Positions 11,603 to 22,492 of a stretch of 26,758 bases of DNA are shown piece after piece. The first letter of the stretch is position 1. Every line of letters starts with the position of its first letter. The notes below the pieces were generated by a model that saw only the letters and a list, made by a program, of their open reading frames with translations, ran no database searches and was not told the DNA's origin. The position numbers were made by a program, and so were the translations under genes. Source of the DNA: Clostridiales bacterium (GTDB taxonomy: Bacteria; Bacillota; Clostridia; Christensenellales; Aristaeellaceae); the NCBI GenBank assembly GCA_015056395.1, contig SVGK01000010.1:1-26758 (forward strand), given 5' to 3'.

Positions 11603-12259
11603 TCACGCGAGCATCTCGCGTATCTTTTCCGCCACGACGGGCGCGAGCTTCGCGTGGTCCGCCCTGGAATAGTGCAGCCCGTCGAAATCGTTGATCTCGA
11701 AGCCGAGCTCCGCACAGTCGATGAAGCCGCAGCCGTGCCTTTCGGCGATGTCGCAGTACAGCGCGCCAAGCTGCAGGCTCTTTTGATAGGCCTCGTCGCC
11801 GAAGCGCGATGCGCTCCTGAGCTTGCCGATGTCCGGATGCGTCGGCGCGGGCGCGATCAGCAGCACCTTGGGCGCGGGATAACCGTAATAGCGCTGTTCA
11901 CACTCCCGCACCAGCATGTCCATGCCCTTGGCGATCATGCCCGCGGAGAGGTTGAAGTGGCGCTTGAGCTCGTTGCAGCCCAGCTGCAGCACGGTCAGAT
12001 CCAGCGGCGCGTGCGCGTCCAGCGCGACCCTGAGGCCAGTGATGCCCCTGCGCAGCGGGAAGTAGGGGTCTTCGACCATGATCGTGCGTCCGTTCAGCGC
12101 GTCCGTGACGACGTCGAACCCGTCGCCCAGCAGCGCGCGCACACGCCCGGGCCAGTGCTCGTCCTCACGCATGCGCCTGCAGGTGTCGAGCTCGGGGATG
12201 TACTGCGTGTGGTCATAGCCCCAGGTGTTGGAATCGCCGAATATCAGTATGCGTTTCAT
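11603..12259 (-). CDS. SGNH/GDSL-family hydrolase (esterase/lipase-like)
   Basis: N-terminal GDSNTWG (block I serine). A GxND-like block. C-terminal DGLHYS (catalytic Asp-x-x-His). ATGA start/stop overlap with the upstream gene. Confidence 0.85.
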   Translation of the reverse strand: MKRILIFGDSNTWGYDHTQYIPELDTCRRMREDEHWPGRVRALLGDGFDVVTDALNGRTIMVEDPYFPLRRGITGLRVALDAHAPLDLTVLQLGCNELKRHFNLSAGMIAKGMDMLVRECEQRYYGYPAPKVLLIAPAPTHPDIGKLRSASRFGDEAYQKSLQLGALYCDIAERHGCGFIDCAELGFEINDFDGLHYSRADHAKLAPVVAEKIREMLA

Positions 12260-12756
12260 GTGCGGATCCCCTTCGCTTCGTCCAGCGCCTTGCGTATCAG
12301 CACGATCTTGCGCTCGTCCTGTTTGTGCTTGACGTTCTTTCGATAGCCGTCCTTTGAGGAAGCCTCATAAACCCTGAGATAATCGGGAAGCGTCAAAAGC
12401 CCATAACGCGCGCCCTTCTCCTCGACGATCGGTATTCTGGATATGTCCACGCCGGCGAAGGGCCCGAGGCTCTCCAGCGAAGCGAAGGCCACGCTGACGC
12501 CGTCCCTTTCGAAGGCGTGCTCCGAGTCGTCATACAGCGCATAGCCCAGCGCCGCCATGGCCCGGCTGAGCATGGGCCAGGCCTCGCGCAGCAGGCGTTC
12601 GGGGACCAGCACGTCCACGTCGTCCGCGTCGAGACTGCGGTCCAGGCGTTCCTCGAGCCCCAGCGAACCAAACAACAGCGGTTCGACGCCGAAGCCCTCG
12701 TTCAACATGCGCGCGACCTGCAAAAATGCCGCGCGTTTCGCGCCGTCAGCTCTCAT
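12256..12756 (-). CDS. Nucleotidyltransferase-fold protein (Pol-beta-like NTase superfamily, 166 aa)
   Basis: Motif LLFGSLGLEERLDRSLDADDVDVLV fits hG[GS]-x(9-13)-DxD. The ATG at 12756 is preceded by AGGAGG 5 nt upstream. The longer ORF-track start at 12876 has no RBS and would read through the upstream hairpin. Confidence 0.7.
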   Translation of the reverse strand: MRADGAKRAAFLQVARMLNEGFGVEPLLFGSLGLEERLDRSLDADDVDVLVPERLLREAWPMLSRAMAALGYALYDDSEHAFERDGVSVAFASLESLGPFAGVDISRIPIVEEKGARYGLLTLPDYLRVYEASSKDGYRKNVKHKQDERKIVLIRKALDEAKGIRT

Positions 12757-12792
12757 GCGTCCTCCTGCGTGCGAACATCCCATCGTCCTCCA

Positions 12793-13345
12793 CAGCGGCG
12801 GCCTCCGGGCCGCCACGCTGTCCATCCGTTCCAGTCTGCGGTCAGTTCGAGGCGAGGAACAGCTTCCAGTCCTCATCTGATATGGAAAACTTGTCGACGA
12901 TCTCCTCGTCCGACCAGCCGGTGGTCAGGCGCAGCTTGCGTATCGTGTCGAAGAGGCTGTTCAAGCGCCCCTCGGCGCGTCCTTCTTCGCGTCCCTCTCT
13001 ACGTCCTTCTTCGCGCCCTTCCTGATAGATATCTTCAATGATGCTGCACATTGCACGTACCCCGTGGCCCCTCCGCAGCGGCGGCCTCCAGGCCGCCACA
13101 CCATCGTCCGTTCCCGCCTGCAATCAGTCCGAGGCGAGGAACAGCTTCCAGTCCTCGCTCGATATGGAGAGCTTGTCGACGATCTCCTCGTCTGACCAGC
13201 CTGTGGTCAGGCGCAGCTTGCGGATCGTGTCGAAGAGGCTGTTCAGGCGCCCCTCGGTGCGTCCTTCTTTGCGTCCCTCTTCGCGTCCTTCTTCGCGTCC
13301 TTCTTCGCGCCCCTCCTGATAGATATCTTCCATGATCTTGCACAT
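12793..13345. repeat. Two tandem ~270-284-bp direct repeats (~88% identity) spanning the 3' end of the Rpn-type gene plus its downstream GGCGGCC-n4-GGCCGCC hairpin
   Basis: Copy 1 is ~12793-13060 and copy 2 is ~13077-13345. Both begin CAGCGGCGGCCTCCRGGCCGCCAC and contain ...CGAGGCGAGGAACAGCTTCCAGTCCTC... Confidence 0.85.
12842..13051 (-). pseudogene. Duplicated C-terminal fragment (~69 aa) of the adjacent Rpn/YhgA-type nuclease gene
   Basis: MCSIIEDIYQEGREEGRREGREEGRAEGRLNSLFDTIRKLRLTTGWSDEEIVDKFSISDEDWKLFLASN is ~85% identical to the last ~70 aa of the 13124..13996 product. It arises from a 284-bp tandem DNA duplication. Confidence 0.75.
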
Positions 13346-13996
13346 TTCAAGCGCCCCCTTTGGGTCGTCCTTATAATACCCGCTTCGTTCCGCCATCTCC
13401 TCGTACAGCATATCCCCGGGATCGCTGCACAGGAAATCGTGCATCAGCTTTCCCAGCGCGTCGTCGCCCCTGTACTGGCCGTTGACATACAGTATGTGTT
13501 CGCGGTCGTCGAAGGGCGCGCCGGTGCCCAGGTTGATGCGCTCGACCGGATAAAGCCCCTTCCCCATGCGGAACACGTCGTGCTCCGTGATGAATATGAC
13601 ATAGGTCTCCGGCAGCGCCCTGAAGGGCTGTCCCGCGCTCAGAGCTTCGATGTCCATCGCGGCTGAGTGGTACCGGGCGCGCTCCGGCTCGGCGCCCTCG
13701 TCCGCGCGCTGCACCTCGATGTCATACTGCCTGTGCTTGCTGTCCGTGGCGTGCACGTCCAGCGTCACGGACCGTGCGCCGGCCAGCCGCTTCATGTCGC
13801 GCTGCGTCTCCGCGCCGGTGAGCACCAGGTCGTCCTTGTCCAGTATGATCCTCAGCACGAACTGCGCAAACGGCAGATCGTCGCGGAACATGCAGCGCAT
13901 GAACACGTCGTCAATGGGACGCAGCTGCGCAAGCCGCGCAAGGCTCCGCTCCGTGAACTGCCTGCGCCAGGCCTCGTCGATGTTCATGGCGCACAC
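13124..13996 (-). CDS. Rpn/YhgA-like PD-(D/E)XK family recombination-promoting nuclease / putative transposase
   Basis: The D...IEVQ core (LDVHATDSKHRQYDIEVQRA) is typical of the transposase_31/PDDEXK families. The C-terminal EGREEGREEGREEGRKEGRTEGR repeats and the LNSLFDTIRKL...WSDEEI tail are hallmarks of this family. Confidence 0.75.
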   Translation of the reverse strand: MCAMNIDEAWRRQFTERSLARLAQLRPIDDVFMRCMFRDDLPFAQFVLRIILDKDDLVLTGAETQRDMKRLAGARSVTLDVHATDSKHRQYDIEVQRADEGAEPERARYHSAAMDIEALSAGQPFRALPETYVIFITEHDVFRMGKGLYPVERINLGTGAPFDDREHILYVNGQYRGDDALGKLMHDFLCSDPGDMLYEEMAERSGYYKDDPKGALEMCKIMEDIYQEGREEGREEGREEGRKEGRTEGRLNSLFDTIRKLRLTTGWSDEEIVDKLSISSEDWKLFLASD

Positions 13997-14162: not shown

Positions 14163-15923
14163 ATGAGCAAGTTCTTTATCGAATGCCCGGCCTGTCACCG
14201 CTACAGCCAGGCCTCCACGTCCCTGTTTGCCAGCCGGCGCATACGCTGCGCCTGCGGCTTCACCATCGACGTCAAGGCGGACCGCATCACCACGCGCGTC
14301 TGTCCGTCCTGCGGCAATTCCATCGCTTTCGACCAGGCGAAGGGCGCGACGGCGAAGTGCCCCATATGCAGGGCGCAGCTGCTCACGCCGGAGAGCATGA
14401 ACAGCCTGGTCACGTTCGCGTGCCGCACCTGCGGCTGCACGCTGCAGGCGAACAAGGGCGCGCAGCAGATCACGTGCCCCCTGTGCGACACGGTCAACGA
14501 CGTGCAGGCCGAGGTCAAGCTCGCGGCGCAGCGCGCGCAAGGCACGCCGCAGGTCATACGCTACGAGGGCGACAACATGACGTTCGTCTGGCGGCACCCC
14601 GCGACGGACTTCGTGATGGGCTCGCAGCTGATCGTGCACGAGAGCCAGGAGGCTCTGTTCTTCCGCAACGGCGAGGCGCTGGATTCGTTCCCAGCGGGAC
14701 GCTACACGCTCGAGACCGCGACGCTGCCGCGCATGAATGGCCTGCTGCCGCTGCCTGTGCAGGGACAGCCCTTCCACGCGGAGGTCTTCTTTGTCAACCT
14801 GACCACGCAGATGGGCATCAAATGGGGCACCAACAGCAAGGTCGGACTGTTCGACCCGGCCAGCGGCCTGCATGTGGAGCTGGGCGCGTCCGGCAGCTTC
14901 AACCTGCGCGTGACGGACCCGCGGCGGCTCGTGATCCGCCTGGTCGGCACCACGGACAGGCTGACGCAGGAGCAGGTGTTCGGGCACGACGGCGGCTACT
15001 TCCGCACGCTGGTCATGACGAAGGTCAAGGCGAACCTCGCGCGCGTGATCAGGGAGAACCGCATATCCGTGCTGGAGCTGGACCAGCACATCGACGTGAT
15101 CGGCGAGGCGCTGCGCACGCAGATCAACGCGGAGTTAGAGGAATACGGCATGACCATGCCTGAGTTCTACGTCGCCAACATACTGACGCCGGACGACGAC
15201 CCGAACTTCAGGCGCATGAAGCAGCAGCACGCGGAGCTCTACCTGCGCACGCGCGAGGAGGAGATCCGTAAGGCCGAGGCGGAGGCGGCGTTCGAGCGCA
15301 AGGCGGTCGAGGCGCAGACGCAGGCGCGCATGAAGGTGATCGGCGCGCAGGGCGAAGCCGACGCCATGCGCATACAGGCGCAGGCCCAGGCGGACGCCTA
15401 CCGCATGCAGGCGGAGGCGGAGGCGCAGGAGATGCGCATGAAGGGCTACACCTACCAGCAGGAGACGACGCGCCAGGTCGCCACGGAGGCGGTCAAAAAC
15501 GGCGGCGCGGGCGGCTTGGCCGGCGACGTGACGGGCGTGCTGGGTGGCGCGATGCAGCTGGGCCTCGGCCTGGGCGCGGCCGGCAGCGTGATCGGCATGA
15601 CGAAGGACGCGCTGGGCGCGATGAACGCGGCCGTGCCGCAGGCGCCCGCCGCGACGGACGACGGCTGGACGTGCGAGGGCTGCGGCTGCACGGGCAACAC
15701 GACGAACTTCTGCCCGAACTGCGGGCGGCGGCGGCCCGAGGCAGGCTGGACGTGCCCGGGCTGCGGGCAGGCGGGCATCACGACGAACTTCTGTCCGAAC
15801 TGCGGGAGGCGACGGCCCGAGGCGGGCTGGACGTGTCCCGGCTGCGGGCTCACGGGCATCACGACGAACTTCTGTCCGAACTGCGGCGCCAAGAAGGGTG
15901 AGAAGGGAGATGTCGAGGGATGA
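14163..15923 (+). CDS. SPFH/Band-7 (YdjI-like, Band_7_1) domain protein fused to multiple zinc ribbons
   Basis: RBS GAAGGAGAG at 14148-14156, then ATG at 14163; the ORF-track start at 13650 is an unsupported extension. The N-terminus has three CxxC...CxxC pairs. The central segment (IRYEGDNMTFVWRHPATDFVMGSQLIVHESQEALFFRNGEALDSFPAGRYTLETATLP...FHAEVFFVNLTTQMGIKWGT) resembles B. subtilis YdjI-type SPFH. An A/E/Q-rich coiled coil, a Gly-rich linker, and three GWTCPGCG..TTNFCPNCG zinc-ribbon repeats follow. Confidence 0.8.
   Translation: MSKFFIECPACHRYSQASTSLFASRRIRCACGFTIDVKADRITTRVCPSCGNSIAFDQAKGATAKCPICRAQLLTPESMNSLVTFACRTCGCTLQANKGAQQITCPLCDTVNDVQAEVKLAAQRAQGTPQVIRYEGDNMTFVWRHPATDFVMGSQLIVHESQEALFFRNGEALDSFPAGRYTLETATLPRMNGLLPLPVQGQPFHAEVFFVNLTTQMGIKWGTNSKVGLFDPASGLHVELGASGSFNLRVTDPRRLVIRLVGTTDRLTQEQVFGHDGGYFRTLVMTKVKANLARVIRENRISVLELDQHIDVIGEALRTQINAELEEYGMTMPEFYVANILTPDDDPNFRRMKQQHAELYLRTREEEIRKAEAEAAFERKAVEAQTQARMKVIGAQGEADAMRIQAQAQADAYRMQAEAEAQEMRMKGYTYQQETTRQVATEAVKNGGAGGLAGDVTGVLGGAMQLGLGLGAAGSVIGMTKDALGAMNAAVPQAPAATDDGWTCEGCGCTGNTTNFCPNCGRRRPEAGWTCPGCGQAGITTNFCPNCGRRRPEAGWTCPGCGLTGITTNFCPNCGAKKGEKGDVEG
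15657..15899 (+). repeat. Three near-perfect 81-bp (27-aa) tandem repeats inside the SPFH gene, each encoding one C4 zinc ribbon
   Basis: GGCTGGACGTG recurs at 15663, 15744 and 15825 with an exact 81-nt period. The encoded units are GWTC[EP]GCGxxGxTTNFCPNCGRRRPEA. Confidence 0.9.
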
Positions 15924-16579: not shown

Positions 16580-16613
16580 TAATTCAGAATTCAGAATTAA
16601 GAATTAAGAATGG
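16580..16613. repeat. AT-rich heptamer microsatellite (AATTCAG x2, AATTAAG x2) directly after the stop codon
   Basis: taATTCAGAATTCAGAATTAAGAATTAAGAATgg contains two EcoRI sites. It is an AT island in an otherwise >65% GC context. Confidence 0.7.
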
Positions 16614-16664
16614 ATAGCCCGGAGACCCGAACGTGCGGGTCCCCCGCAATGCCCCGAACGACCT

Positions 16665-17655
16665 CGTAGCGGTGGCGTCTACGCCGCCATATCCCTCGCC
16701 ATTCCCGCCAGGGAATGCGAAACGACCGAAGGACCTCATCCGGCCCTCACGGGCCACCTTCCCCAAAGGGCAACGCTGTCAACTTTGAACAAGGACATAA
16801 CAAATCATAGATATACGTCGTCCAGCGGGAATGGCGGCTGATAGCCGCCGCTACGGATCACATGATCTGCAAATGTAACCGCATAAACGGCACGGGATCG
16901 TCTTAAGTTGACAGCGTTGCCCCAAAGGGGAAGGCAAGGTCCGCCATTCAATATACGATCCGCCGTCGTACCTCGCCCATCGGTCCCGAGGACGATGATC
17001 AACAGACAAAGAGACGATCGGCCCACGAATGTACCCATATCACAGCTCGGCACGCCCGATCCTCGCCCGGAGCGGCGTCCTGTCGACGCCGTCTCCGCGA
17101 CAAAACCTCGAGCCGTCCGCTCCTATCCGACCTTGATCCCCGAGCTGACGTGGCCCGTTGGACCGCGTACAGCACAGCCACCGCGCCGAAGGCGCGGCGC
17201 GAAGCGTCCTTGAGGGTCCTCATGCTGTCTGCTAAACTGAAGCACACGGCGGCGTGATAAGGTTTCGTTTCCAACCTCTCACCCGTCGCCGTGGCCTCAT
17301 ACAAGCAGACAGCAGGAGGTTCATCAAGGATGGCGGCCGGACGAGGTATCCGTCCCCCCCAACGACCCCGTAGCGGCGGCTATCAGCCGCCACATCCCTC
17401 GCCATTCCCAACAGACAAGCCGAAACGACCGAAGGACCTCATCCGGCCCTCACGGGCCACCTTCCCCAAAGGGCAACGCTGTCAACTTAAGGCGATCCCG
17501 TTTTGGTTGTGCAGCTACATCTGCAGATCGTGTGATCCGTAGCGGCGGCTATCAGCCGCCATTTCCGACGCACAACGTATACCCGTGATTTGTTATGGTC
17601 TTGTTAAAAGTTGACAGCGTTGCCCCAGAGGGGAAGGCAAGGTCCGTCATTTGAA
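16665..17655. mobile_element. Non-coding MITE-like composite repeat: ~115-bp inverted arms (16827-16943 and 17455-17566) around a ~500-bp core, with extra partial copies on both sides
   Basis: The left arm and the reverse complement of the right arm align at ~85% (GGAATGGCGGCTGATAGCCGCCGCTACGGATCACAYGATCTGCA...CTTAAGTTGACAGCGTTGCCC...). Direct repeats 16665-16786 and 17369-17488 share an identical 66-bp block at 16721-16786 and 17424-17488. There is a further fragment at 17609-17652. The only ORFs here are spurious GC-frame ORFs. Confidence 0.6.
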
Positions 17656-17791
17656 TACAAGATCGACCGCACCCCCCAGAATCACGGCCAGCGTTCGATC
17701 TCCGGCCAATAATTCCGAAACACCCGGAGGGTGTCTAGCGAAGCGTCGATTCCGAATTACCCCATCCCCCCACGACCAAAGGAGCAACACC

Positions 17792-20700
17792 ATGATCATC
17801 TTCAAATGCAAATCCTGCGGCGGCGACCTGTCCTTCGAGCCGGGCGCGAGCGTCGCGGAATGCCCCTACTGCGGCGTGAAGCAGACGCTGCCGAAGCTGG
17901 ACGACGACAAGCGCGCGAACCTCTACGACCGCGCCAACCACTTCCGCCGCCAGAACGAGTACGACAAGGCCATGGCGATCTACGAGCAGATACTGTCCGA
18001 GGACCGCACGGACGCCGAGGCGTACTGGTCGCTGGTGCTGTGCCGCTACGGCATAGAGTACGTCGAGGACCCCGTTACGCGCAAGCGCGTGCCCACGGTC
18101 AACCGCGCGCAGTACGCCTCCGTGCTGGCGGACGACGACTACAAGTCGGCGCTTCAATACGCGGACCCTGCGCAGCGCGTGCTCTATGAATCGGAGGCGG
18201 AGGCCATCGCGGAGATACAGCGCGGCATATTGGACATCTCGCGCAAGGAGCAGCCCTTCGACGTGTTCATCTGCTACAAGGAGACGGACGCGAACGGCCG
18301 CCGCACGCCGGACAGCGTGCTGGCGACGGACCTGTACCACCAGCTGACGAAGGAGGGCTTCCGGGTATTCTTCTCGCGCATCACGCTGGAGGACAAGATC
18401 GGCACGGCGTACGAGCCGTACATATTCGCGGCGCTGAACAGCGCGAAGGTGATGGTGGTGCTGGGCACGAAGCCGGAGTACTTCAACGCGGTGTGGGTGA
18501 AGAACGAGTGGAGCCGCTACCTTGCGCTGATACGCGCGGGCGCGGAGAAGGTGCTGGTGCCCGCGTACCGCGACATGGACCCCTATGACCTGCCGGAGGA
18601 GTTCGCGCACCTGCAGGCGCAGGACATGGGCAAGCTGGGCTTCATGCAGGACCTGATACGCGGCATCAAGAAGCTGACCGCGAAGGACGATCCGAAGCCC
18701 GCGCGGCCCGCAGCGCAGACCGTGGTCGCGGGCCCCGGCGCGAACATAGAGAACCTGATGAAGCGCGCGCGGCTCTTCATGGAGGACGGCAACTGGATGA
18801 GCGCCACGGAGTACCTGGACAAGGTGCTGGACGAGAATGCCGAGTACGCGCCCGCCTACGCGGGCAAGGTGCAGGTCTCGCTGCGCATGAAGCGGGAGGC
18901 CGAACTGGCCGGGAGCCTCACGGACTACGAAGGCGACCCCGACTGGCAGAGGGCGCTGCGCTTTGCCGCGCCCGAACAGCGGAAGGTTTACGAGGGGTAC
19001 GCGGCGCAGGCGGCGGAGGCGCGGGAGGAGAAGCGCAAGGAAGACATCTATGCCGGAGCGGCCGCCATGCTCGCAAAGGCCGATACGCCCGCCGCGTGCC
19101 GCGCGGCGAAGGCGGAATTTGCGAAGATCCCGCTGCACAGGGACGCGGGCGCGAAGGTGCGCGAGTGCGAGGAGAAGGCGAGGCGCATCGAATACGACGC
19201 GCTCCTCACCAGATACAAGGACGTGGCCAGGGACTATAACAGCGTCTCAAAGGCCGAGAGGCTTGAGGCGCTTGCGGCGGAGTTCGATGCGTTCAGGGGC
19301 ACCGACATGCCCGGGCGCTGCCGCGCGGAGGCGGAGCAGTGCCGCGCGGCGCTCTATGACGAGGCCGCCGAGGCCATGCGGAAGAGCGCGCAGGCACAGC
19401 AATTCGAAAAGGCGGCGGAGCTGTTCAGACGGCTGGGCGCCTACAGGGACGCGCAGGCGCAGGCGCGAAAGTGCTCGGACAGCGCGGCGGAAGTCAAACG
19501 CGCCGACGAGCTGCGCGCCGCGCGTGAACGCGAGGAGCAGGAGCGCAGGATAGAGAAGGAGCGCGCCAGACAGAAGAGGAACAGGGTGCTCCTGTCGTTG
19601 CTGGTGCTCGTGCTGGCGGCGGGCGCGCTGGCCTATCTGTACGTGCTGAAGCCCATGATGGCCTATGACAAGGCGGTTGGGGCGATGGAGGCGGGAAACT
19701 ACGACGAGGCGACGGCGCTGTTTGAAGAGATGGGAGACTACAGGGACGCCGCTGTACAGGCGCAGGAGAGCCAATACAGGAAGGGTCTGTCGTTGATGAA
19801 CAGCGGAAAATACGATGCGGCTGTAGAGGTGTTCAACAGTATCGGCAGTTACGGCGATAGTTCCGCAAAGGCAAAACAGGCACAGGCAGACAAATTGTTT
19901 GATGCGGGATATTACGCCGAAGCGTATGCGGCATACATCGCATTGGATTCGGAGTATCAAACACATAAAGACGATTACGAGCAGATGTACGTCGATGCAT
20001 CGAGGCTGTTTGCGGATGGTGATTATGATGGCGCCAGCATGGCGTTTAATTCGATCGCGGGATACAAGGATTCAACAACACAGGCAAAGGAGAGCCAATA
20101 CCAGAAGGGCCTGTCGTTGATGAACAGTGGGCAATATGATGCAGCTGTAGAGGTATTCAACAGTATCAGCAGTTACGGCGATAGTTCTACGAGAGCAAAA
20201 CAGGCACAGGCAGATGAATTGTTTGCTGCGGGGAATTACGCCGAAGCATATATGGTTTACGCCGCATTGGATACGGGATATCAAACACACAAAGACGATT
20301 ACGAGCAAATGTACGTCGATGCATCGAAGCAATTTGCGGATGGTGATTATGACGGCGCCAGCAAGGCGTTTAATTCAATTGCAGGATACAAGGATTCAGT
20401 AACACAGGCAAAGGAGAGCCAGTACCAGAAGGGCCTGTCGTTGATGAACAGCGGGCAATATCATGCAGCTGCGGTGGCATTCAAGAGCCTTGGCAGTTAC
20501 AACGACGCCGCGACACAAGCGCAGGAGAGCCAGTACCAGAATGGCCTGTCGTTGATGAAAATTGGGCAATACGATGCGGCTGTGGAGGTATTCAAGAGCC
20601 TTGGCAGTTACAACGACGCTGCGACACAGGCGCAGGAGAGCCAATATCGGAAAGGCATGTCGTTGATGGAGAGCGAGGAGTATGATGCGGCTACGGAGGT

Positions 20701-21484
20701 GTTCGATGGCCTCAGTAATTACAACGACGCCGCGACAAAAGCGCAGGAGAGCCAGTACCTGAAGGCGGCGGCGCTGAACACAGCGGAGAATTACGATGAA
20801 GCTTATCTGGTCTATGCGTCCATAGCCGGCTATAAGGATGTTGACAGCATCGTCAAAAACGACGGTAATATTTCAGCAGCAGCCTGGCGCGCGCAGTTAT
20901 ACGTCGGCAATACGGTGACCTTCGGCGCGTACGACCAGGACGGCGATACCTCAAACGGCGCGGAGGCCATCGAATGGATCGTGCTGGCGAACGACGGCAA
21001 GACGGCGACGCTGATTAGCAGATACGGTCTGGACGCGAAGCCCTACAACACTGAACAAGAATATGTGACCTGGGAGACATGCACGCTGCGGAAATGGCTG
21101 AACGGCGATTTCCTGAACGCGGCCTTTTCGGCGGACGAGAGGGCGAAGCTTGAAACGGTCAAGGTCACGGCGGACAGGAATCCCAAGAATTTTATCGATC
21201 CCGGCAACGACACGCAGGACAAGGTCTTCCTGCTGTCCATAGACGAGGCGAACAAGTATTTCAGCTCTGATTCGGACCGCATGTGCAAGCCCACGAAGAC
21301 GGCAGTCAAGAATGGAGCAAGCACGAACAGCTCGGGTGCGTGCTGGTGGTGGCTGCGGTCGCCCGGCTACTATCCTAGCCTCGTCGCATACGTCCGCGAC
21401 GACGGTTCGGTCTACTACGACGGCTGCGGTGTCTACAACGGCGATCTCGCTGTTCGGCCGGTCGTGGTGCTGCGGCTTTCATAG
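17792..21484 (+). CDS. Large single-pass membrane protein (1230 aa): N-terminal zinc ribbon, TPR-like region, TIR domain, helical repeat region, TM helix, ~12 degenerate 37-38-aa extracytoplasmic repeats, DUF6273-like C-terminal domain
   Basis: RBS AAAGGAG at 17778-17784 and ATG at 17792 (MIIFKCKSCGGDLSFEPGASVAECPYCG); the ORF-track start at 17651 is an unsupported extension. The TIR region at ~18254-18680 reads QPFDVFICYKETD...EGFRVFFS...VMVVLGTKPEYFNAVWVKNEWSRYLAL, with the conserved W-x3-E at 18494-18508. The TM helix RVLLSLLVLVLAAGALAYLYVL lies at ~19585-19650. Repeats fit the pattern G.Y.DA..QA.ESQY.KG. The C-terminus (TVTFGAYDQDGD...IEWIVLANDGKTATLISRYGLD...VTWETCTLRKWLN...KVFLLSIDEA...ACWWWLRSPG...AVRPVVVL) matches my recollection of DUF6273. 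Confidence 0.8.
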   Translation: MIIFKCKSCGGDLSFEPGASVAECPYCGVKQTLPKLDDDKRANLYDRANHFRRQNEYDKAMAIYEQILSEDRTDAEAYWSLVLCRYGIEYVEDPVTRKRVPTVNRAQYASVLADDDYKSALQYADPAQRVLYESEAEAIAEIQRGILDISRKEQPFDVFICYKETDANGRRTPDSVLATDLYHQLTKEGFRVFFSRITLEDKIGTAYEPYIFAALNSAKVMVVLGTKPEYFNAVWVKNEWSRYLALIRAGAEKVLVPAYRDMDPYDLPEEFAHLQAQDMGKLGFMQDLIRGIKKLTAKDDPKPARPAAQTVVAGPGANIENLMKRARLFMEDGNWMSATEYLDKVLDENAEYAPAYAGKVQVSLRMKREAELAGSLTDYEGDPDWQRALRFAAPEQRKVYEGYAAQAAEAREEKRKEDIYAGAAAMLAKADTPAACRAAKAEFAKIPLHRDAGAKVRECEEKARRIEYDALLTRYKDVARDYNSVSKAERLEALAAEFDAFRGTDMPGRCRAEAEQCRAALYDEAAEAMRKSAQAQQFEKAAELFRRLGAYRDAQAQARKCSDSAAEVKRADELRAAREREEQERRIEKERARQKRNRVLLSLLVLVLAAGALAYLYVLKPMMAYDKAVGAMEAGNYDEATALFEEMGDYRDAAVQAQESQYRKGLSLMNSGKYDAAVEVFNSIGSYGDSSAKAKQAQADKLFDAGYYAEAYAAYIALDSEYQTHKDDYEQMYVDASRLFADGDYDGASMAFNSIAGYKDSTTQAKESQYQKGLSLMNSGQYDAAVEVFNSISSYGDSSTRAKQAQADELFAAGNYAEAYMVYAALDTGYQTHKDDYEQMYVDASKQFADGDYDGASKAFNSIAGYKDSVTQAKESQYQKGLSLMNSGQYHAAAVAFKSLGSYNDAATQAQESQYQNGLSLMKIGQYDAAVEVFKSLGSYNDAATQAQESQYRKGMSLMESEEYDAATEVFDGLSNYNDAATKAQESQYLKAAALNTAENYDEAYLVYASIAGYKDVDSIVKNDGNISAAAWRAQLYVGNTVTFGAYDQDGDTSNGAEAIEWIVLANDGKTATLISRYGLDAKPYNTEQEYVTWETCTLRKWLNGDFLNAAFSADERAKLETVKVTADRNPKNFIDPGNDTQDKVFLLSIDEANKYFSSDSDRMCKPTKTAVKNGASTNSSGACWWWLRSPGYYPSLVAYVRDDGSVYYDGCGVYNGDLAVRPVVVLRLS
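19766..20413 (+). repeat. Two tandem 324-bp (108-aa) intragenic direct repeats (~88% identity) within the extracytoplasmic repeat region of the TIR protein gene
   Basis: GAGAGCCAATAC recurs at 19766, 20090 and 20414 with an exact 324-nt spacing. This stretch (~19690-20830) has visibly lower GC (~50%) than the 5' half of the gene (~70%). Confidence 0.85.
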
Positions 21485-21607: not shown

Positions 21608-22492
21608 ATGAACGGAAGACCAGGCATCCTCTTTCTCGGCAACGGCATCAACCGACTGTTCAATGACGATCCGTGGGACAAGATGATCCGCGACCAGCTC
21701 GCCCTGTCGGGCCATCGCTACACGTGGGAACAGATCAGGAACATACCGCCCACGATGCAGATCGTACTTGCGACGAACGATCAGGTCGACGCCCGCCTCA
21801 AGCAGATCGCAAAGGAGCTGGAACAACAGCGCATACAGGACGAACGCGCCGCTTTCCTGCGCAGGCTCGCCGGTATGGATGTCGACTGCGTAATGACGGC
21901 GAATTATTCTCTCGAGATCGAAAAGGCATTCGGGCTGAAGGAAAGCTGCGCCTCCTACAGGCGGCGCCTGAACAGGACCATCGAAGCAAACGGCCTGCGC
22001 GACGATTTTCGTCTGTACCAATATTATCCCCTCGAGCGGGCGGACGGAAGGACGATGCCGCTTTGGCACGTGCACGGCGACATCGCGAAGCCTCGCTCCA
22101 TGATCATGGGCCATTACTACTACGCAAGGCATCTGCGCGAGATACAGGACCGCGTCGGCGTTATGATGCGCGTCGTTCGGGGCTGTGAACGGGCCGGCTC
22201 GACGTTCCATCCGCAAAGCTGGGTCGATGCGTTTCTGATAAGCGACGTGTTCATGCTCGGCTTTGGGCTGTATCTGTGTGAGTCCGATTTGTGGTGGCTG
22301 CTCTGCTGCAAGAAGCGCAACTTCCCCGATACGAAGGTGTTCTTCTACGGCGAGGCGACGAATGATGTCCGGCTGCTGCTGGAGGCCTATGGCGGCGAAA
22401 CGCAGGACGAGATCAGCCGGATCGGAGAAGACGGCTATATGCGCTTTTATGAAAGGGCGATCGCGGATATCGAACGAAAGCTGGAACATTAG
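21608..22492 (+). CDS. Stand-alone SIR2-like (SIR2_2 / DSR-ThsA-type sirtuin fold) protein, 294 aa, no additional sensor domain
   Basis: The N-terminal ILFLGNGINRLFNDDPWDKMI fits the SIR2_2 consensus lFlGAGxS...PxW..L. VMTANYSLEIEKA fits TTNYDxLlE (catalytic Asn retained). LWHVHGDIAKPRSMIMGHYYY fits iyKlHGs...lvlt.edY (catalytic His retained). DVFMLGFGLYLCESDLWWLL fits llfiGYSl.D. RBS AAAGAGGTG lies upstream. The gene is 124 bp downstream of, and co-directional with, the TIR gene. Confidence 0.65.
   Translation: MNGRPGILFLGNGINRLFNDDPWDKMIRDQLALSGHRYTWEQIRNIPPTMQIVLATNDQVDARLKQIAKELEQQRIQDERAAFLRRLAGMDVDCVMTANYSLEIEKAFGLKESCASYRRRLNRTIEANGLRDDFRLYQYYPLERADGRTMPLWHVHGDIAKPRSMIMGHYYYARHLREIQDRVGVMMRVVRGCERAGSTFHPQSWVDAFLISDVFMLGFGLYLCESDLWWLLCCKKRNFPDTKVFFYGEATNDVRLLLEAYGGETQDEISRIGEDGYMRFYERAIADIERKLEH

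Follow-up and report, generated by a model that had tools for sequence, protein, structure and literature searches.

A putative stand-alone copy of the intragenic RpnS antitoxin downstream of an Rpn-family nuclease gene in an uncultured Clostridiales bacterium

In the Rpn proteins of Escherichia coli and Clostridioides difficile the C-terminal domain is separately translated from an internal start, and the resulting small protein, RpnS, binds to full-length RpnL, a toxic endonuclease, and blocks it (Zhong et al. 2023, PMC10400941). In the first helix of RpnS, four-amino-acid (dodecamer) repeats occur in hypervariable number, starting 8–20 residues past the Met, and in the case of RpnC only an RpnS with an equal repeat number neutralises RpnL, a mismatch of one repeat leading to failure (PMC10400941). 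RpnS is also encoded by separate downstream genes, termed 'rpnSs', which have arisen independently from the upstream genes, as for ypaA, located after rpnE, whose protein was detected in E. coli (PMC10400941). Tandem rpn arrays and partial duplications were attributed in the same work to tandem direct duplication without target-site duplications (PMC10400941, SI Fig. S1B), and nothing further on RpnS or rpnSs was found in the literature searched after 2023. Here we describe an rpn locus in a 26,758-nt stretch of DNA (the entire contig SVGK01000010.1 of assembly GCA_015056395.1, Clostridiales bacterium; the whole stretch is hereafter the window), in which the last 73 codons of an rpn gene, designated rpnL, are repeated head-to-tail together with a GC hairpin, with a 69-aa open reading frame (ORF) in the downstream copy. 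With a probability of roughly 80%, in our judgement, the locus represents an RpnL/RpnS antitoxin-within-a-toxin module plus one extra stand-alone antitoxin copy. The arrangement itself is already known from E. coli rpnE-ypaA, and the window locus is a new example in a distant lineage.

By profile match, the long ORF belongs to the Rpn-family PD-(D/E)XK nucleases, its nuclease activity being predicted. The gene and its motif are located as follows:

13124..13996, (-) strand: rpnL, full-length Rpn/YhgA-type PD-(D/E)XK nuclease, putative toxin (TIGR01784 and PF12784)
13709..13723, (-) strand: (D/E)XK-like motif D92-I-E94-V-Q96, with Q replacing K, within YDIEVQ (alignment)

The protein scored 53.9 bits with TIGR01784 ('Rpn family recombination-promoting nuclease/putative transposase'), a narrow margin over the cutoff of 52.1, and 33.4 bits with PF12784 (PDDEXK_2; cutoff 27.4). 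More than 3,630 homologues bearing PF12784 were found, the best at 65% identity, and in a protein alignment of the rpnL product with 29 homologues at 50–65% identity the residues D80, D92, E94 and Q96 were invariant (30/30); from published knowledge of the family, we take these to be the catalytic residues. The two profile matches and YDIEVQ thus agree with an earlier reading of the letters alone (the sequence-only reading), that had called an Rpn/YhgA PD-(D/E)XK protein with an IEVQ motif. With a GTG start at 13996, the ORF codes for 290 aa according to ORF calling. Exact look-up of this 290-aa form gave no match, since public gene calls on identical contigs start at ATG 13987, leading to a protein of 287 aa. 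A PDB sequence search with the full protein retrieved weak irrelevant matches only, and the AlphaFold2 (AF2) model of full-length RpnL was poor (pLDDT 59.7). Matches to Yae1_N and FliH, due to the low complexity of the EGR repeats, were disregarded.

The duplication involves the 3' end of rpnL and the sequence just after it, including two copies of the hairpin:

13070..13364, (-) strand: copy B of the duplication unit, with Shine-Dalgarno (SD) sequence, rpnS, 3' untranslated region (UTR) and hairpin, inside and just after rpnL (repeat search, MAFFT, tblastn)
12790..13069, (-) strand: copy A of the duplication unit, downstream (repeat search, MAFFT, tblastn)
13080..13097, (-) strand: GC hairpin with a 7-bp stem and a 4-nt loop, without a U tract, 27 nt past the stop of rpnL and 29 nt ahead of the small-ORF ATG (motif search)
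12797..12814, (-) strand: GC hairpin, second occurrence, past the small ORF, with stems identical to the first and one loop base different (motif search, MAFFT)

The repeat search identified a 197-nt direct repeat (12825–13021 and 13107–13303, 89% identity, spacing 282) and a hairpin-bearing direct repeat of 30 nt (12787–12816 and 13070–13099, 93% identity, spacing 283). Alignment of both copies with MAFFT over ~300 nt gave a mean column identity of 91%, with one 12-nt gap within the EGR-coding array and three gaps of 1–2 nt in the non-coding flanks. When the Rpn protein was compared with the window by tblastn, the second copy was matched at residues 214–290 (80.5%, E 3e-21), and no paralogue was found in the window beyond this copy. 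The duplicated unit, ~283 bp long, extends from ~25 nt upstream of an internal Met codon to ~55 nt past the stop and includes the GC hairpin; the copies now differ by ~10% in sequence and, with six repeats in one and five in the other, by one 12-nt unit. A tandem duplication of the rpnL 3' end plus hairpin, as previously proposed, is therefore confirmed by repeat search and MAFFT, at 89–91% identity and a spacing of ~283.

A collapsed or expanded repeat, mis-joined during assembly, could in principle produce such a picture, and two short metagenome contigs (L083 and L084) indeed end within the duplicated segment (window position 13251), as the repeat breaks up some assemblies. Nevertheless, an artefact of this kind is ruled out for practical purposes, because the copies differ by ~10% and by the 12-nt indel, and because both of them are spanned in three independent assemblies (JGI 3300031555, JGI 3300018427 and Logan SRR7031252) that are 99.98–100% identical to the window. 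The locus was found unchanged in at least five samples.

The position at which the duplicated unit begins becomes meaningful when the internal start of the family is considered, for which the following elements are relevant:

13124..13345, (-) strand: intragenic rpnS, 73-aa C-terminal domain from M218 (MCKIMEDIYQ...), with six xEGR units, putative cognate antitoxin (alignment, definition of PMC10400941)
13354..13361, (-) strand: in-frame SD-like sequence AAAGGGGG at codons K213-G214, 8 nt ahead of the internal ATG (128-gene survey)
13259..13309, (-) strand: 12-nt (4-aa) repeat array in rpnL/rpnS, 4.2 copies, 92% matches (Tandem Repeats Finder, TRF)

The internal Met, M218 (ATG 13345–13343), and the adjacent C219 are invariant in all 30 aligned proteins. 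In a survey of 128 distinct genes of the family, drawn from genome and metagenome data, an SD-like 5-mer was present at positions -18 to -5 of the internal ATG in 128/128, versus 6.6% of control in-frame positions. Moreover, the Gly codon at the G214 site was GGR (GGA or GGG) in 125 of the 128 genes, while elsewhere in these genes 60% of Gly codons are GGR (Fisher p 8e-23), showing that the SD is kept at the nucleotide level, beyond the conservation of the 'KG' dipeptide. The window genome otherwise strongly favours GGC for Gly, yet AAAGGGGG stands at the SD site. On these grounds, the family carries a conserved internal ribosome-binding site (RBS) and start, and the synonymous codon choice that preserves an in-frame SD represents nucleotide-level evidence for an antitoxin start conserved across the PF12784 branch. 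Downstream of M218-C219, four-residue units (xEGR, xEGL, KEGI and others) occur in ~1 to 10 copies among the homologues; in the window, the xEGR units begin at residue 10–11 of the small protein and are six in the gene and five in the stand-alone copy. The EGR-type repeats already noticed in the C-terminal part of the protein are thus present, their 12-nt period being confirmed by TRF.

Since the copy starts just upstream of this family-wide internal start, the duplicated unit can be read as the intragenic RpnS antitoxin module, that is, as the predicted RBS, ORF, 3' UTR and hairpin of an internal gene and not as an arbitrary gene tail. Three features are found in the downstream copy:

12842..13051, (-) strand: stand-alone copy of rpnS, 'rpnSs'-type, 69 aa, with five xEGR units (ORF calling, alignment)
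12976..13021, (-) strand: 12-nt repeat array in the stand-alone copy, more degenerate than that in rpnL, with 73% matches over 3.8 copies (TRF)
13060..13063, (-) strand: GGGG, SD remnant 8 nt upstream of the small-ORF ATG (-12 to -9), weaker than the in-gene SD, its function being presumed (sequence, MAFFT)

The 69-aa in-frame C-terminal fragment that the sequence-only reading had pointed out at this place is intact. The encoded protein starts with MCSIIEDIYQEGREEGRREGR..., shares 90% amino acid identity with the in-gene RpnS and 34–49% with the C-terminal domains of 14 homologues, and is present in public annotation as a hypothetical protein (P0121). Homology of the stand-alone copy reaches ~25 nt upstream of its ATG, so that the internal start and the RBS region lie within the copy. 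An AF2 model of the 69-aa protein (pLDDT 70) contains helices at residues 4–44, 48–54 and 59–68, and hhalign comparison of an alignment of window-type C-terminal domains with YpaA aligned 54 columns at 30% identity (probability 69%, pairwise E 4e-5). Of the 210 aligned coding positions, 20 differ between the copies: 9 synonymous differences over 44.5 sites and 11 non-synonymous ones over 162.5 sites correspond to a dN/dS of 0.30 (Fisher p 0.018). The final 40 codons, coding for the helical C-terminal part, show seven synonymous and four non-synonymous changes and a dN/dS of ~0.15. Evidence of selection on the 69-aa ORF itself is, from these comparisons, only suggestive.

By analogy with the E. 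coli work (PMC10400941), RpnL would be a toxic DNA endonuclease, and the 73-aa RpnS produced from the internal start would bind the identical C-terminal domain of RpnL and block it. The 69-aa ORF would correspond to a ypaA-like rpnSs, probably co-transcribed, the U-less hairpin being read through, with translation from the weak SD, and its product would fold as a long helix plus two short ones, able to pair with RpnS or RpnL tails.

Several observations weigh against the presence of an extra antitoxin gene. The dN/dS of 0.30 pools the certainly constrained in-gene branch with the stand-alone one, and the amino acid differences are mostly on the stand-alone copy with respect to the homologue consensus (K3S, M5I, L59F, S63D), a concentration that is compatible with relaxed constraint. 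An ORF of such composition keeps open through 20 random substitutions 22% of the time. A scan for sigma-70-like promoters of the small ORF retrieved none, and the SD is cut down to GGGG. Foldseek with the 69-aa model did not return any E value below 0.5, RpnA-S (7TH0) being ranked 9th (E 3.1, target-normalised TM score 0.52, 28% identity over 40 columns), and the small protein did not match PF14261 (DUF4351) at E up to 10. YpaA of E. coli, however, is missed by the same profile, as are three sequences of relatives (stand-alone or C-terminal-domain), so that DUF4351 cannot be regarded as a defining rpnSs feature. PADLOC had no model matching rpn or its neighbours and, given the one-repeat result with RpnC, the five-unit copy may fail on the six-unit RpnL.

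Some of these points, namely the chance retention of the ORF, the degraded SD with no promoter found and the amino acid changes placed on the stand-alone branch, would also fit a functionless relic, in which the 69-aa ORF persists as GC-rich sequence that seldom gains stops; the more degenerate 12-nt array of the stand-alone copy (73% versus 92% matches) and the fact that RefSeq flags ypaA, the E. coli counterpart, as a pseudogene go in the same direction. We nevertheless consider a relic rather unlikely. Like those of ypaA in E. coli and of L032, L060 and L109 among the relatives described below, this duplication begins at the SD that belongs to the internal start, a coincidence that is hard to obtain by repeated chance unless functional units survive. 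In addition, dN/dS is low overall and lower still over the C-terminal 40 codons, YpaA is a detected protein (PMC10400941), and the stand-alone copy of a gut lineage is strongly constrained.

This last evidence comes from a survey of 123 rpn genes for which at least 300 nt of downstream sequence were available. Stand-alone tail ORFs directly downstream of rpn were found in L032 (two in tandem), L060, L071, L107 and L134, and in a human-gut lineage on 13 contigs; all of them start a few codons before the conserved Met, and relatives gained such copies several times independently. The small ORF of the gut lineage is ~46% identical to the tail of its parent and, when L114 was compared with L110, 13 synonymous differences over 33.2 sites and only 2 non-synonymous differences over 128.8 sites were counted; this copy is under strong purifying selection. 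The sequence-only reading had set its fragment against a conserved independent gene. In kind, such genes do occur, as the ORFs of relatives recur and one lineage is constrained, while for the ORF of the window the case is only suggestive (dN/dS 0.30). Larger duplications were also observed: L002 contains two complete tandem rpn genes, and L003 (4956–5555) a second, N-terminally truncated rpn with six repeats versus eight. Both fit a tandem duplication without transposition, as in PMC10400941. In L032 (4922–5494), the two tandem stand-alone rpnS copies have successively fewer repeats.

Repeat number differs in all parent/copy pairs that we examined, that is, this window, E. coli rpnE/ypaA, L032, L060, L071, L107, L134 and the L109 gut lineage. 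The stand-alone repeat helix differs in length from that of the parent in 8/8 pairs, and in seven of these pairs the domains as a whole differ by a multiple of four residues, L032 having an extra 3-aa indel. Given a repeat number unlike that of the neighbouring gene, the stand-alone copy is less likely to be just a second dose of the cognate antitoxin than to act as a modulator, as an orthogonal antitoxin or as a substrate for recombination. A stronger claim, that stand-alone copies are selected as something other than spare antitoxin doses and that the mismatch in repeat number is adaptive, seems to us doubtful. If true, they could act as orthogonal antitoxins, for instance against non-self RpnL variants acquired by horizontal transfer (anti-addiction), or serve for tuning of RpnS-RpnS pairing or as cassettes re-setting specificity. 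As a null explanation, the repeat number may be unstable and drift neutrally once uncoupled from rpnL. In either case, the consistent mismatch between parent and copy poses a small testable question on the evolution of specificity in Rpn toxin-antitoxins.

The cassette possibility deserves a separate comment, as the locus consists of two ~90% identical direct repeats that flank nothing else, and the repeat number differs in every parent/stand-alone pair. Recombination between the units would delete one of them and fuse the nuclease to the five-repeat tail, thus switching the RpnL/RpnS specificity. We judge this very unlikely: no population variation or recombinant form was seen among the contigs with the locus, all 99.98–100% identical, the ~10% divergence and a dS of ~0.24 between the copies argue against recent gene conversion, and the switch would be one-way, destroying the cassette. 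An RpnL/RpnS module followed by an additional antitoxin copy thus remains our preferred interpretation of the locus.

As to how the duplication arose, a 7-mer is found at both outer edges of the repeated segment:

13365..13371, (-) strand: AGGACGA at the outer 5' edge of copy B (inferred from boundary sequences)
12783..12789, (-) strand: AGGACGA, second occurrence, at the outer 3' edge of copy A (boundary sequences)

Illegitimate or microhomology-mediated recombination between these short direct repeats is the most likely origin; the exact crossover is not resolvable, the inner junction having diverged. The dS of ~0.24 indicates, as far as sequence divergence can tell, that the duplication is old and was not followed by gene conversion, and the 12-nt indel would have arisen later through slippage in the dodecamer array. 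The GAAGAAGGACGC-like repeats had been proposed as probable promoters of the slippage behind the duplication. This is not supported, because both ends of the 283-bp unit fall outside the arrays (12976–13021 and 13259–13309), and the 12-nt repeats account only for the difference between six and five units.

The hairpin, GGCGGCC-n4-GGCCGCC, occurs exactly twice in the window, against a chance expectation of 0.09, and two matches were obtained in 0/100 shuffles. Its interpretation as a terminator is not supported: neither copy is followed by a U tract, the following sequence being GCUGCGGAGG or GCUGUGGAGG, and neither was called by the terminator scan. The folding energy of the hairpin regions does not differ from that of shuffled sequences (z -0.3 and +0.2).

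The sequence-only reading had also placed rpn at the boundary where ribosomal synteny breaks. The secY-adk-map-infA-rpmJ cluster, instead, ends at rpmJ (~10276), three genes away, and the usual rpsM-rpsK-rpsD-rpoA continuation is missing from the rest of the contig after 10276–10340. After rpmJ, on the opposite strand, are found in order a DUF7309/DUF6930 gene, a GDSL hydrolase gene, a 166-aa ORF, rpnSs and rpnL. The 166-aa ORF (12256–12756, (-) strand) lies directly downstream of the small rpnS copy, has a strong AGGAGG SD and runs with its stop into the start of the GDSL hydrolase gene. It did not match any model in Pfam, NCBIfam or PADLOC; by eye, an LFGSLG...DADDVDVLV motif (nucleotidyltransferase-like GSxG...DxD), typical of minimal nucleotidyltransferases, can be recognised.

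Beyond rpnL, the window contains an SPFH/zinc-ribbon protein gene, a gene for a 219-aa membrane-like protein, a repeat-rich gap of 1.07 kb, a gene for a 1,277-aa TPR-TIR-DUF6273 protein and a weak SIR2-like ORF. The SPFH/Band-7 gene (14163–15923) has at its 3' end three tandem 81-nt repeats (15663–15905, (+) strand; 72–85% identity to the first), each encoding a GWTCxGCG...TTNFCPNCG zinc-ribbon unit. The gap (16580–17650, between the 219-aa and the TIR-TPR genes) is without convincing ORFs and includes direct repeats spaced 703 nt (16683–16785 and 17386–17488, 93%; 16905–16948 and 17608–17651, 95%), a 155-nt inverted repeat (16768–16922 and 17471–17625, 86%) and copies of the CCGTAGCGGCGGCTATCAGCCGCCA hairpin motif; the region possibly resembles a miniature inverted-repeat transposable element or encodes a structured RNA. 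No match was obtained when the window was scanned for Rfam families and tRNAs. The 1,277-aa ORF (17651–21484, (+) strand; 1,230 aa in public calls) includes TPR repeats, a TIR_2 domain (residues 205–327) and a C-terminal DUF6273, and the 294-aa ORF that follows (21608–22492) has a sub-threshold SIR2_2 match. The domain content near rpn is loosely defence-like, though PADLOC matched nothing.

ORFs such as the 69-aa one are usually annotated as 'hypothetical' or as pseudogenes; once they are recognised as antitoxin modules, defence loci can be better annotated. With the present locus, the combination of rpnL/rpnS and rpnSs known from E. coli is extended to the PF12784 branch and to a distant Clostridiales lineage of high GC content. 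The closest described counterpart of the locus is the rpnE-ypaA pair, that we compared in E. coli K-12. In both, a small ORF on the same strand after rpn copies the C-terminal domain of that gene. DNA homology sets in ~15–25 nt before the internal ATG and covers the SD (in rpnE-ypaA, 15 nt before it, with AAGGAG), and the copies, 84% identical between ypaA and the rpnE 3' end and ~90% identical here, are exactly one 12-nt (4-aa) unit apart, a single 12-nt indel being present also in the E. coli pair. Differences are nonetheless evident. The nuclease domain is PF12784 (PDDEXK_2) here, while E. coli Rpn proteins are described as PF04754 (Transposase_31); the host is an uncultured Clostridiales metagenome-assembled genome of 61% GC; the small ORF is separated from the rpn stop by 72 nt, in which the GC hairpin lies, versus 12 nt in E. 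coli; and RpnE is annotated as an inactive nuclease, whereas the window protein keeps D80, E94 and Q96. Expression was shown in E. coli, the window locus being known from its sequence.

With the RpnL/RpnS systems described so far (RpnA, RpnB, RpnC, RpnP2 and C. difficile Rpn), the locus shares the PD-(D/E)XK nuclease domain at the N-terminus, the conserved internal start with an in-frame RBS, and the small C-terminal domain with variable 4-aa repeats in the first helix, 8–20 residues after the Met. It differs in the repeat unit, which here is xEGR (charged residues plus Gly). RpnA-S (7TH0) has three helices with a long first one; the AF2 model of the 69-aa protein, with one long and two short helices, agrees with this description but resembles 7TH0 only weakly in Foldseek (E 3.1). 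Finally, as in the described tandem rpn arrays and partial duplications, relatives range from a complete pair (L002) through a truncated second gene (L003) to stand-alone tails (L060, L032), whereas at the window locus only an antitoxin-sized unit was duplicated.

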